From the NCBI GenBank assembly GCA_037305845.1, contig CP147778.1, positions 1,856,001-1,920,000 on the forward strand: 64,000 nucleotides of DNA, read 5' to 3'. This document shows, in pieces, positions 52,209 to 63,700 of this stretch (its first letter is position 1; the number at the start of each line of letters is the position of its first letter). Below the pieces are notes generated by a model. The model saw only the letters and a list, made by a program, of their open reading frames with translations, was not told the DNA's origin and searched no databases. Position numbers and translations under genes: made by a program. The stretch comes from Candidatus Freyarchaeum deiterrae. Lineage in GTDB: Archaea; Asgardarchaeota; Jordiarchaeia; Jordiarchaeales; Jordiarchaeaceae.

Positions 52209-52883
52209 TTATTCATCAATCGGTTGCTTATTATCCGGTTTTATGATATTAGAAATGCTTTTAAGTTCTTCACGAATTTGTTCAATCTCTTCAGTTACAA
52301 AATTGATTTTTTCCTCTAATTTCCTATTCCACTCATAAACCTCTAATCCGATTCTATCTAAAGCAGTTGAATACGGCTCTTCGCCCCATTCCAAGTAATC
52401 AATAAAATTTTTAATTATCTTATCCTTCTCTAACAAAAGTTCGTACTCTAACGAGACAACCTCATCATCTTGAACTTGGAATATTTTAACTTCCGCATCG
52501 CCCGGACGCCCCGACATAATGAAATCATGTGGATCGACGACCAACGCTATACCCTGAGGGAACATTCCCTGAAGCCCAACTTGGGTTTCCACATCAATCG
52601 AAGAAAGAAAACAGCCGAACCCAGGATGGGAATGATACCAGCCTACAAGGTACTCACTTCTTCCCTGTCTCTCAATTTTCTCAGCAATAAGGGGCGCAAC
52701 AGTTGGCGCTAACTTCACGTGGCCTGGCGTACCAATCTGAGGCCCAGTGTCTGAATCAGTAACTTCAACCACATCACCTGTCAACTTTCCAATTAATACC
52801 CCTGCCACCTCTATTCCAGAGAATGATACACTATGCCTGAGAATCTTAGCGAGGGCTAAAGGATAAACCCTAACACTAACCAT
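52209..52883 (-). CDS. JAMM/MPN+ isopeptidase (Rpn11-like)
   Basis: EVAGVLIG, GWYHSHPGFGCFLSSIDVETQ, LVVDP. Confidence 0.93.
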   Translation of the reverse strand: MVSVRVYPLALAKILRHSVSFSGIEVAGVLIGKLTGDVVEVTDSDTGPQIGTPGHVKLAPTVAPLIAEKIERQGRSEYLVGWYHSHPGFGCFLSSIDVETQVGLQGMFPQGIALVVDPHDFIMSGRPGDAEVKIFQVQDDEVVSLEYELLLEKDKIIKNFIDYLEWGEEPYSTALDRIGLEVYEWNRKLEEKINFVTEEIEQIREELKSISNIIKPDNKQPIDE

Positions 52884-53090
52884 ATTAATTCACCACAAAA
52901 CAATCGAAGAATCAAGCACTAAACTTTACACTTAATTAGTTCGCGTATCAAAAGAAATTATCCCTTCCTATATCTGAGTTATCCGTCTATTTATTTCTCC
53001 CTCTTAAGAAGATTTTTTATTTCTCCCTTAATATAAAACTATGGTATTGATTGATACAAATAAGCTACCAAATCAAATGTTACATAAAAA

Positions 53091-53798
53091 ATGAGGAGAA
53101 ATCAGTTGTCTGGGAAGAACGTTTTACATGTATATTCCTGCTGTGATGTTGCCACCCCTGCAAAAATATCTAGTAAAATGTTTCAGGAAAAATACGATGC
53201 TGAAGTTGAATTCACAATTGGAATGCCCAATGAAATAATTCCCAAACTCGCAAGCACGCATGAAAGTGATGTCTTCACCTGCGGAGCGGCATACATAATG
53301 GATGAAGTGGAAAAAAGTGGTTTAATAACTAGACAGAACAGAAGAGTCCTAGGCTACAGAAGGTCATTAATATTAACACAAAAAAATAACCCCAAAAAAA
53401 TAAAATCTCTCACAGATCTGACAAAAAAGGACATAAAAATCGCTGTGTCAACTACAGGAAGCCTAAAGGGAGTTTGGGACGAAATCACCAGCAAAACTGG
53501 ACTAACAGAAAAAATACAGAAAAACATCACCCTATTCGCCGACGGATGCGGAGAACTATTAGGCTCAATTGTGCAAAAAAAAGTAGACGCTGCCTTCGGC
53601 TGGAATACCTATAAAGTTTTACACACAAAAGCTATTGATGCAGTTGAACTTTCCAAAGAAATACAAGTCTATAGAAGCACTCTAATAACAATTACCTCCT
53701 TCACGGAAAACAAAGAAACGGCGAACAAATTCATCAAATTTCTATTATCAAAAGAAGGAAAAAAAATATACACAAAATACGGATGGATAACCCCGTAA
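53091..53798 (+). CDS. ModA-like oxyanion substrate-binding domain protein
   Basis: KNNPKKIKSLTDL, VDAAFGW, A.KFIKFLLS.EGKKIYTKYGW. Confidence 0.75.
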   Translation: MRRNQLSGKNVLHVYSCCDVATPAKISSKMFQEKYDAEVEFTIGMPNEIIPKLASTHESDVFTCGAAYIMDEVEKSGLITRQNRRVLGYRRSLILTQKNNPKKIKSLTDLTKKDIKIAVSTTGSLKGVWDEITSKTGLTEKIQKNITLFADGCGELLGSIVQKKVDAAFGWNTYKVLHTKAIDAVELSKEIQVYRSTLITITSFTENKETANKFIKFLLSKEGKKIYTKYGWITP

Positions 53799-53945
53799 CT
53801 GAAACAAGCCCTCAAATAATATTAAAACAAGAAATCAAGTTACCTCTACTTAAGTCCTCTCCTTATGAGAAGACTTTAAATTGTTTATTCTCCCTTGATT
53901 ACATAATAAGTCAGAAATAAACTAACACCACGGGAGGTTCAACCT

Positions 53946-62576: not shown

Positions 62577-63195
62577 AATCATTAAAGAGTGTATGCAGGC
62601 GCTAAGAGGCGACACCAATCCCTTCAATATCCCTATTTACGAATATGCGGTCGATCTTCAAGAAAATCTTTCCCAAGTGAATTTAAATAACATAACAGAA
62701 CACTCTGAGGCATTGCATAACTTAGTCATGGTTCATGAAAAAAAGATTAGCGAAGCATACAGACTACTATCCCCCGATTTTCCAACCAATAAAAACCTCA
62801 AAGATAAGTTCCAAAAACTCGACATAAACTCTCTCTCAAACCTCATTAACCTGCATCCTATAGTAAAATTAAACATCATTACTACGGCTGGACTGCTTTA
62901 CTCACTTGCCTTTCTACAGGGACGTGAATACGCTCCCTTAGTTTTTCCACAAGAGGAAAAGGTTGAGGTGAAAGCAGACGTATCAAACTTTTATGATGAA
63001 CCACCTTTTATGAATATTGTGAAAAATTTCCTAAACACCCTGCAAAATTCAAACAAAACTGAAATGTTCAAGATTATTCGCGGCAATACCTGGGAAGAAA
63101 CCGTTCGAAAATTTATGGCCTTCACCTTCCTCCTCGACGGAAAAAAAATTAAGATTATATCCGAAGGGGACAAAAAATTCATTGAGGCGATTTAA
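62560..63195 (+). CDS. Kleisin (ScpA/Nse4-like)
   Basis: N-terminal NPFNIPI, C-terminal winged-helix V.KFMAFTFL...K.I.I; overlaps the smc stop. Confidence 0.65.
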   Translation: MKKTSEIIKECMQALRGDTNPFNIPIYEYAVDLQENLSQVNLNNITEHSEALHNLVMVHEKKISEAYRLLSPDFPTNKNLKDKFQKLDINSLSNLINLHPIVKLNIITTAGLLYSLAFLQGREYAPLVFPQEEKVEVKADVSNFYDEPPFMNIVKNFLNTLQNSNKTEMFKIIRGNTWEETVRKFMAFTFLLDGKKIKIISEGDKKFIEAI

Positions 63196-63196
63196 C

Positions 63197-63700
63197 ATGT
63201 CAACGGAACTCCAATTACTATCCCTACTACTAATTCTAACCCATGGAAAAAAGCCAGGAATCACCTCAGAAGAACTACGAGCAATCTTCCTAACCGAAGA
63301 GGAAGACGAATCCAACCTGCACAACCTGATGAATACACTACAGGATAAACTAAACGAAATAGGTCTACAATTAAAATACGTTCCAACAGAGAAAAGATGG
63401 ATAATAACAGTAAACGATTTAGGCTCCACCCTAGTACCCAGCTTTCTAATCGACAGATCCGTAACAGCCACCCTAGCAGTAATCCTCTCTTTAATTCTAG
63501 AAAAAGGCGCCCCCATAGAAAAGGAAGAACTAAAATTTCTTAAAGAGAAAATGAGTGAAGAACAACTCCAAAAAAACCTCAAAACACTAGAAGAAAATGG
63601 TTACATAGGAATTGAAAAAAACATAATAACACTGAAAAACCGTATAATATACGAAGTAGATTTAGACGAGTTCAGGAAAAAAATATCAGAAATAAAATAA
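63197..63700 (+). CDS. KITE subunit (ScpB/Nse1/Nse3-like tandem winged helix)
   Basis: L...L..IGLQL; L..LEENGYI......TL..R..YE; starts right after the kleisin stop. Confidence 0.6.
   Translation: MSTELQLLSLLLILTHGKKPGITSEELRAIFLTEEEDESNLHNLMNTLQDKLNEIGLQLKYVPTEKRWIITVNDLGSTLVPSFLIDRSVTATLAVILSLILEKGAPIEKEELKFLKEKMSEEQLQKNLKTLEENGYIGIEKNIITLKNRIIYEVDLDEFRKKISEIK

Follow-up and report, generated by a model that had tools for sequence, protein, structure and literature searches.

Among the SMC complexes of eukaryotes, only Smc5/6 has ubiquitin and SUMO ligases as integral parts, and these are regarded as having been added in eukaryotes (10.1101/2024.01.07.573240). SMC5/6-related SMC-kleisin-kite operons are already known in TACK and Asgard archaea, where, as here, they form a second operon beside Smc-ScpA-ScpB with an Nse4-related kleisin and a RING-less Nse1/3-type kite (10.1101/2021.05.15.444277; 10.1101/2024.01.07.573240). 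Caldiarchaeum and Asgard archaea carry an operon for ubiquitin (Ub), E2, E1 and the small RING protein srfp, with Rpn11 (PMC5654768; PMC9192718). We analyzed a 64,000-nt window (positions 1,856,001-1,920,000) of the single 3,576,204-bp contig of Candidatus Freyarchaeum deiterrae, a complete 3.58-Mbp genome from soil (PMC11291895), in which both kinds of genes share one cluster at 52209-63700. Our preferred reading, with a probability of roughly 0.6, is that two modules of different age were joined here, an old SMC operon and a second ubiquitin cassette. Each part is of a known kind; a search of the open literature turned up neither their combination nor the remodelled enzymes.

A first-pass annotation had placed a JAMM protease, Ub, E2, an E1 with a helix-hairpin-helix (HhH) insert, an RWD-RING, a HEXXH-RING, a stand-alone RING and an AAA-SMC-kleisin-KITE operon in this interval, and all of them lie where it put them, with the domains it named. 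In window coordinates the genes are:

52209..52883 (-): JAMM/Rpn11-like metalloprotease (PF01398, E=3.7e-19; E26 and HxH..D intact); paralog at genome 2,046 kb
53946..54191 (+): ubiquitin, 81 aa (PF00240, E=3.6e-8; C-terminal GG-F); divergent paralog of the canonical Ub at genome 1,987 kb
54345..54779 (+): E2 (UBC; PF00179 (UQ_con), E=3.3e-32; HPN65, Cys79)
54831..55982 (+): E1 (ThiF, E=6e-59; Cys178; HHH_5 at residues 197-244, E=1.5e-4)
56021..56593 (-): RWD-RING, 190 aa, with one RWD
57618..58349 (+): HEXXH zinc protease (minigluzincin/M48-like; HELGH at 82-86) with a C4HC3 RING
58354..58578 (-): small stand-alone RING (srfp paralog), 7 of 8 standard ligands
58693..60072 (+): CC150-AAA fusion protein (CC150 copy at 1-100, AAA+ at 115-345, helical domain at 375-459)
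60069..62576 (+): SMC5/6-related SMC, 835 aa, with hinge, short arms and intact ATPase motifs
62560..63195 (+): Nse4-related kleisin
63197..63700 (+): Nse1/Nse3-type KITE, 167 aa

All open reading frames (ORFs) named in that annotation are genuine genes under purifying selection. The ratio of nonsynonymous to synonymous substitution rates (dN/dS) against a congener was 0.06-0.12 for nine cluster genes, indicating strong purifying selection, with dS saturated for Ub, E2 and SMC. By the family we mean Jordarchaeaceae (Freyarchaeum/Jordarchaeum; f1), represented by the window genome and five others, and by the order Jordarchaeales.

The AAA, SMC, kleisin and KITE genes are arranged as in one operon, which bears out their proposed coupling: AAA and SMC overlap by 4 nt, SMC and kleisin by 17 nt, and 1 nt separates kleisin from KITE. 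By sequence, the SMC, kleisin and KITE are of the published archaeal SMC5/6-related kind and distinct from the condensin of this genome. The SMC scored above the Pfam cut-offs for both SMC_N (148 bits) and SMC_hinge (44 bits; 43.6). SMC head trees split it from canonical Smc (SH-aLRT 100) and left Rad50 outside, and a 20-sequence family profile matched yeast Smc5 best (276 bits), with Smc6 at 256-264 bits, SMC2/3/4/1 at 242-194 bits and Rad50 at ~100 bits. It is neither condensin nor Rad50 and is SMC5/6-related, as the first pass had supposed. The Jordarchaeum madagascariense locus, the only one returned by an SMC-based search for related loci, has been scored as SMC5/6-related SMC, Nse4-related kleisin and Nse1/3-related kite, with SMC adjoining kleisin and kleisin adjoining kite (Suppl. 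Table 3, 10.1101/2024.01.07.573240).

Other identities for the SMC were rejected. A canonical condensin Smc did not fit the TIGR02169 score (258 bits, cut-off 729), and the canonical Smc-ScpA-ScpB operon of the genome (Smc 1,194 aa) lies separately, 45 kb downstream. For Rad50, there is a hinge above cut-off instead of a zinc hook, and the Rad50 hidden Markov model (HMM) gave <=63 bits. Coalescin/ASRP, also our first guess for close 600-650-aa relatives, reached 92 of 300 bits; in that group a zinc hook replaces the hinge (PMC9389158). Because the window SMC has a true hinge, it is not a coalescin/ASRP or a Rad50. At 835 aa with a hinge, it stands between the 550-680-aa forms, which have no Pfam hinge match, and the forms of 1,060-1,160 aa that other Asgard families have. 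Its closest relatives outside the family (550-680 aa) lie in SMC-kleisin-kite operons, and one contig with such a relative also bears a canonical Smc operon. A search for hinge-less SMC in the open-access literature found no description. A single origin of all pseudo-AAA-linked SMCs was neither demonstrated nor rejected by an approximately unbiased (AU) test (p=0.088).

The kleisin and KITE had no Pfam match and were identified through family profiles. Yeast Nse4 (E=0.0017) ranked ahead of ScpA (E=0.0055) for the kleisin, a small margin. The KITE profile matched an Nse3/MAGE chain (7dg2_C, E=1.5e-5) and human NSE3 (E=0.067), with no ScpB chain among its structure matches, in keeping with the Nse3/MAGE-like KITE first proposed; a profile from a wider alignment reached only MAGE-B1 at E=0.09. 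In a genome with both operons, the KITE corresponds to the kite of the second operon and not to ScpB. It has no Cys-rich tail and no fused RING, and so lacks this feature of Nse1.

Operons in other Asgard families vary around this core. That of f21 (L097:926-7041) encodes an AAA with intact motifs and without the C-terminal domain of the window family, then SMC, two small winged-helix genes, kleisin and KITE. In f17 and f19 (L090:8380-14895; L091; L094) the SMC5/6-type operon continues into a primase large subunit and a 255-aa ThiF gene, after which comes a CC150 homolog. The canonical Smc of f9 (L083:7736-12184; L088:7692-12137) is ~1,480 aa, ~290 aa above usual, and L088 has inserted sequence between canonical Smc and ScpA.

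The conserved unit is the four-gene operon pseudo-AAA-SMC-kleisin-KITE. A pseudo-AAA profile matched 132 of 301 Asgard genomes at E<=7.5e-45, spread over six families, and in all 44 genomes outside Jordarchaeales found in both match lists the gene is directly upstream of SMC on the same strand. Neither this gene nor a ubiquitin linkage is mentioned in the cited texts and supplements on archaeal SMC5/6-related operons (10.1101/2021.05.15.444277; 10.1101/2024.01.07.573240), and no description of an Asgard SMC with an AAA ATPase was found in the open-access literature. The AAA domain (Pfam E=5e-21) folds over its core (115-345) like classical-clade AAA+ domains. In every AAA of the family the Walker B Glu is Asn (DN) and Walker A is intact; across 44 aligned AAA rows Walker A (GxxxxGK[TS]) is kept in eight, all from the family, and lost outside it. 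The protein is a probable pseudo-ATPase. Its C-terminal helical domain (~80 aa, 375-459) is private to the SMC-linked AAA group, single-copy in the window genome and without an ESM Atlas match >0.9. We think it likely that the pseudo-AAA binds the SMC complex as a non-catalytic fourth subunit. The first-pass comparison with p97 did not hold, given a single AAA domain, the DN Walker B and 92 of 803 bits for the CDC48 HMM; full two-domain CDC48-like genes are present elsewhere in the genome. Two identical contigs of one metatranscriptome (271 and 231 nt) match the AAA gene; they may be DNA carry-over and the rest is uncovered, so they were not used as evidence. In other loci, the pseudo-AAA-SMC operon of G006 is immediately preceded by a gene pair that Pfam identifies as a MoxR-type AAA and a VWA gene (L069:3978-7290), and same-size pairs occupy that place in three families (L071, L075, L080, L081, L086, L095); the pair is missing there in the window.

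The ubiquitin genes of the cluster are a second, divergent, long-branch set. A canonical sRING-Ub-E2-E1 operon, corresponding to the only such operon in sister families, lies 70 kb off at genome 1,985-1,988 kb. Its E1 falls among the canonical E1s of other Asgard archaea, and the window E1 branches beside that class and outside it (96/98 and 98/98). Our first idea, that the cassette was a recent duplicate of the resident operon, was rejected by an AU test on E1 (p-AU 0.010). The cluster holds the Ub GG, the catalytic Cys residues of E1 and E2, the RINGs and the JAMM motif, and by analogy with Caldiarchaeum (PMC5654768) is predicted to be a working E1-E2-RING cascade, in which the JAMM protein would cleave the terminal Phe off pro-ubiquitin and strip conjugates. 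It shares with the described operons (PMC5654768; PMC9192718) a pro-Ub extension after GG, E1, E2, a small RING and a nearby JAMM gene on the opposite strand. It differs from them as an extra divergent copy with an HhH insert in E1 and two further RING fusions, with the small RING inverted relative to Ub-E2-E1 and an SMC operon as neighbour in place of ESCRT. Each of the three RING-type domains is below or near Pfam cut-offs with ligand patterns present; the RWD-RING and protease-RING have eight ligands, and the sixth ligand of the small RING is Glu in 7/7 copies examined. In the genome as a whole the same srfp-like RING forms the C-terminal end of at least 15 proteins; it is frequently preceded by a double zinc ribbon, and several of these proteins are encoded by ORFs of 660-1,690 aa (C1 142 kb, 346 kb, 365 kb, 3,010 kb, 3,414 kb and others).

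The junction of the two modules lies in the AAA gene. CC150 is a ~150-aa hairpin/coiled-coil gene of the Asgard Ub-ESCRT locus, and residues 1-100 of the AAA protein are homologous to it (E=2e-5 in a whole-genome search with a profile built without AAA). All 6 family genomes have two copies, one free and one fused; nearly all others having CC150 have one. In canonical loci CC150 diverges from the small RING, usually just before UEV-Vps23, and the fused copy has the same divergent position. By coordinates, inverting the Ub-to-protease block once restores the order sRING-Ub-E2-E1. Because the fused CC150 keeps its canonical position and one inversion restores the order, the cassette appears to have come with its flank, which became joined to the AAA gene at the head of the SMC operon. 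Conservation extends to the CC150 motif within the fusion and to the AAA fusion as a whole (dN/dS 0.076). The CC150 family has a beta-hairpin/coiled-coil with the motif I-x-T-P-x-G-x-V-P-T (L067:10846-11307, L144:10945-11397, L147:10924-11364) and is mostly single-copy in 70 of 201 Asgard genomes; it is a candidate unrecognised ESCRT-I partner.

The linkage of ubiquitin and SMC genes is complete in 5/5 congeners and in L245, at 58% identity the remotest member detected. Among loci with this four-gene operon, those from other Jordarchaeales and from four more Asgard families had no Ub, E2 or small RING within ~8 kb, and E2-centred loci from 14 genomes outside Jordarchaeales had no SMC. The retrieved canonical Smc loci, a small sample of related and non-independent genomes, gave no match to E1, E2, Ub or JAMM. 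The pairing is special to one Asgard family rather than ancestral, and the conservation across Asgard genomes that the first-pass annotation had named as a check was not found above the family level. Two other families have related arrangements at different SMC5/6-type operons: f6 has SMC-kleisin-kite-zinc finger-JAB-E1 in a row (L102:7428-13429), and f12 has an E1 and a Ubl-like gene upstream (L103:4601-13339). A putative E2 in the latter had no Pfam or profile match and was rejected; only the E1 was counted. These E1s form a separate long branch in the best tree, with a common origin with the window E1 unrejected (p-AU 0.11). A ~150-aa zinc-finger gene closes the f6 and f12 operons, and the same gene follows the kite in f5 (L093:6358-6801).

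The window E1 has a family-specific insert of ~63 aa (184-247) immediately after catalytic Cys178, which was not found in 39 other E1/ThiF sequences. Its best PDB matches were RAD51 N-terminal (HhH)2 domains, ungapped over 51 residues (E=0.014), and TIGR02239 matched E1 residues 197-273 (E=0.0036). The RAD51 N-terminal domain binds DNA. No description of an E1 with a possible DNA-binding insert was found in the open-access literature.

The RWD-RING has a single RWD in the window, versus a ~290-aa double-RWD-RING in most relatives (longest homologs 286-301 aa). An ArsR-type HTH gene (56872..57231, (-)), an unrelated insertion missing in five same-genus genomes (6 compared), occupies the spot where relatives carry the first RWD. 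FANCL, the ELF-DRWD-RING E3 of the Fanconi anaemia core complex, gave the top Foldseek matches to a double-RWD-RING model (E=3.6e-5 and 2.7e-4), and in the VIA alignment residues 3-288 matched FANCL 104-366. ESM Atlas leads for the RWD-RING at 0.86-0.89 were RWD, listerin and FANCL. Both proteins have tandem RWDs and a C4HC3 RING with C-x4-C spacing, but the archaeal one lacks the ELF domain, shares 11-16% identity and occurs full-length in the f1 family only, among 301 genomes. The FANCL-like architecture proposed at first pass thus goes further in relatives than the window copy shows. No description of an Asgard FANCL, or of an archaeal double-RWD-RING of this type, was found in the open-access literature.

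The HEXXH protein matched M48 at E=4e-5 (24 bits, cut-off 20.3), SprT-like at E=0.005 (17 bits, cut-off 25.6) and, in further searches, the MJ1213 minigluzincin and RINGs, with no WLM match in Pfam. The first-pass annotation had compared it with Wss1/SPRTN proteases, which work with p97 on DNA-protein crosslinks. The locus does share with that system a HEXXH zinc protease near AAA+ and ubiquitin genes, but the SprT match is sub-threshold and the protease looks more like minigluzincins and M48; the AAA, which has one domain and a dead Walker B, is no CDC48 ortholog. In genus g21 the protease-RING lies by DUF47 and tRNA endonuclease genes, with no Ub or SMC gene within ~9 kb; the same two genes come after KITE in the window, and the protease-RING may be an old resident of the site.

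On our reading of two joined modules, the older would comprise the pseudo-AAA+, the SMC5/6-related SMC, the Nse4-type kleisin and the Nse3-type KITE. From known SMC-kleisin-KITE architecture, the last three would assemble into a homodimeric, loop-extruding Smc5/6-type DNA-folding ring beside condensin, with the pseudo-AAA, presumably without hydrolysis, as a probable non-catalytic loader or scaffold acting through its private C-terminal domain. In the f1 ancestor the second cassette (small RING, Ub, E2, E1 and flanking CC150) would have been placed head to head with this operon; CC150 would then have fused in frame to AAA, and one Ub-to-protease inversion would have given the present order. 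The cassette would have specialised as an HhH domain was inserted in E1 near the catalytic Cys and the double-RWD-RING arose. We put the odds that the cascade tags DNA-bound proteins at about even; that the SMC complex serves as its substrate or its base of action is plausible but more tentative. Eukaryotic Smc5/6, with its Nse1 RING E3 and Nse2 SUMO E3, likewise has an SMC5/6-type ring with KITE, to which ubiquitin ligase genes adjoin here; in the window the ring is predicted to be homodimeric, the RINGs are separate genes and an extra pseudo-AAA has no eukaryotic counterpart found. The locus is best read as a lineage-specific parallel to eukaryotic Nse1/FANCL and is probably not their ancestor.

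Several points weigh against the joining and specialisation of two modules. The 11 cluster genes are not a single operon but are divided among at least five transcription units, with both strands in use, and an unrelated ModA-type binding protein gene (53091-53798) lies within the span. Because neighbouring genes at unrelated loci stay together in the genus as well (31/31 adjacent pairs), a conserved cluster within the family is the expected background and adjacency alone proves little; housekeeping neighbours also travel with the cluster. Rejection of a recent duplication of the resident E1 also removes one candidate source of the second cassette. The E1 HhH match is weak, and its fold is also protein-binding (RNA polymerase alpha-CTD is among the matches). 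The first RWD is lost in the window genome and its three closest relatives, the double-RWD-RING model is mediocre (pLDDT 61.5, pTM 0.38), and the FANCL likeness may be convergent, since the UEV of Vps23 from the same genome is similar to the first RWD (HHalign 95.9%). The trees contained no eukaryotic sequences, and a Pyrococcus Smc head scored 271 bits on the SMC family profile, making the margin of Smc5 over Smc small. In the main rival, a rearrangement put a second cassette beside the SMC operon by accident and left the CC150 fusion as a scar that is tolerated, while the cascade works in ordinary protein turnover or in ESCRT sorting, unconnected to SMC. We regard this as possible, at well under even odds. 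The background synteny fits it, as do an ESCRT-I/II operon (UEV-Vps23, Vps28, Vps22/EAP30; 37497-39754, (-)) 14 kb upstream of the Ub gene, the usual place of CC150 before UEV-Vps23, the g21 protease-RING by DUF47 and tRNA endonuclease without Ub or SMC, and the four-gene operon without nearby Ub, E2 or small RING in five other families. A mere scar sits less well with the conservation of the fused CC150 motif and the AAA fusion (dN/dS 0.076), and the family additions, HhH in E1 and the double-RWD-RING, look like parts for DNA repair and not trafficking. Moreover, two other families put an E1, one with a JAB, beside an SMC5/6-type operon, and no retrieved canonical Smc locus did.

The first-pass annotation saw in the cluster a possible prokaryotic forerunner of ubiquitin-coupled Smc5/6, which in its strongest form would be an ancestral Asgard-wide module, the source of eukaryotic Nse1 and FANCL, since lost or scattered in most lineages. 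The E1s (and JAB or Ubl-like genes) beside the f6 and f12 operons, their unrejected common origin with the window E1 and the position of that E1 outside the canonical class, where it may be old, would suit such a module, as would the weak matches of the protease-RING to the NSE1 RING (E=0.04-0.1). We nevertheless consider it improbable, and an ancestral relation of this cascade to Nse1 or FANCL highly doubtful: the linkage was found in one family only, where the Ub genes come as a second set, the two groups of SMC-linked E1s lie apart in the best tree, the double-RWD-RING is confined to the family, and Arkadia, HRD1 and AMFR rank above NSE1 for the protease-RING. With 15 RING-motif proteins in the genome a nearby RING is cheap, and van Hooff et al. 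(10.1101/2024.01.07.573240) regard the Nse1 RING as gained in eukaryotes and missing from archaeal kites, as it is from the window KITE. Least probable to us is a defence island, Wadjet/Lamassu-like or CBASS/Bil-like, that restricts foreign DNA. Eukaryotic Smc5/6 does restrict viral DNA, and the ATPase and E1 have generic matches to defence models; yet PADLOC found only this generic ATPase/ThiF similarity and nothing for kleisin, KITE, E2 or RINGs, and the locus has no nuclease or effector, with no JetD or LmuA-type effector there or in relatives' loci. The cluster is also single-copy, under strong purifying selection and similar to its flanks in GC content, at a fixed chromosomal site amid housekeeping genes, and none of the findings suggests the restriction role raised at first pass.

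The locus, with enzymes that carry DNA-repair-like parts, may be an archaeal parallel to the eukaryotic tie between ubiquitin and Smc5/6. It is speculative, though conceivable, that Jordarchaeaceae independently built a DNA-directed ubiquitin pathway upon their Smc5/6-type complex, with CC150-pseudo-AAA as tether of the cascade to the ring, HhH-E1 charging on DNA, DRWD-RING choosing substrates, and protease-RING and JAMM clearing them; together with the f6/f12 kits, SMC5/6-Ubl coupling would then be a recurring archaeal trait predating Nse1 and Nse2. The small, complete and expressible set of ~11 proteins lets one ask if an archaeal Smc5/6-type ring is ubiquitylated or bears a ligase, and the locus supplies an archaeal FANCL-type double-RWD-RING together with an E1 whose insert may bind DNA. 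Ubiquitin aside, much of Asgard diversity has in the conserved pseudo-AAA a candidate for a fourth subunit. Were the neighbourhood accidental, it would still be a clean example of a duplicated cassette fusing and remodelling.

A sigma-70 promoter scan of the locus was at chance level, with a model unsuited to archaea. An ArsA/GET3-family ATPase gene (50014-50973, (+)) lies two genes away from the JAMM gene and is syntenic within the family.

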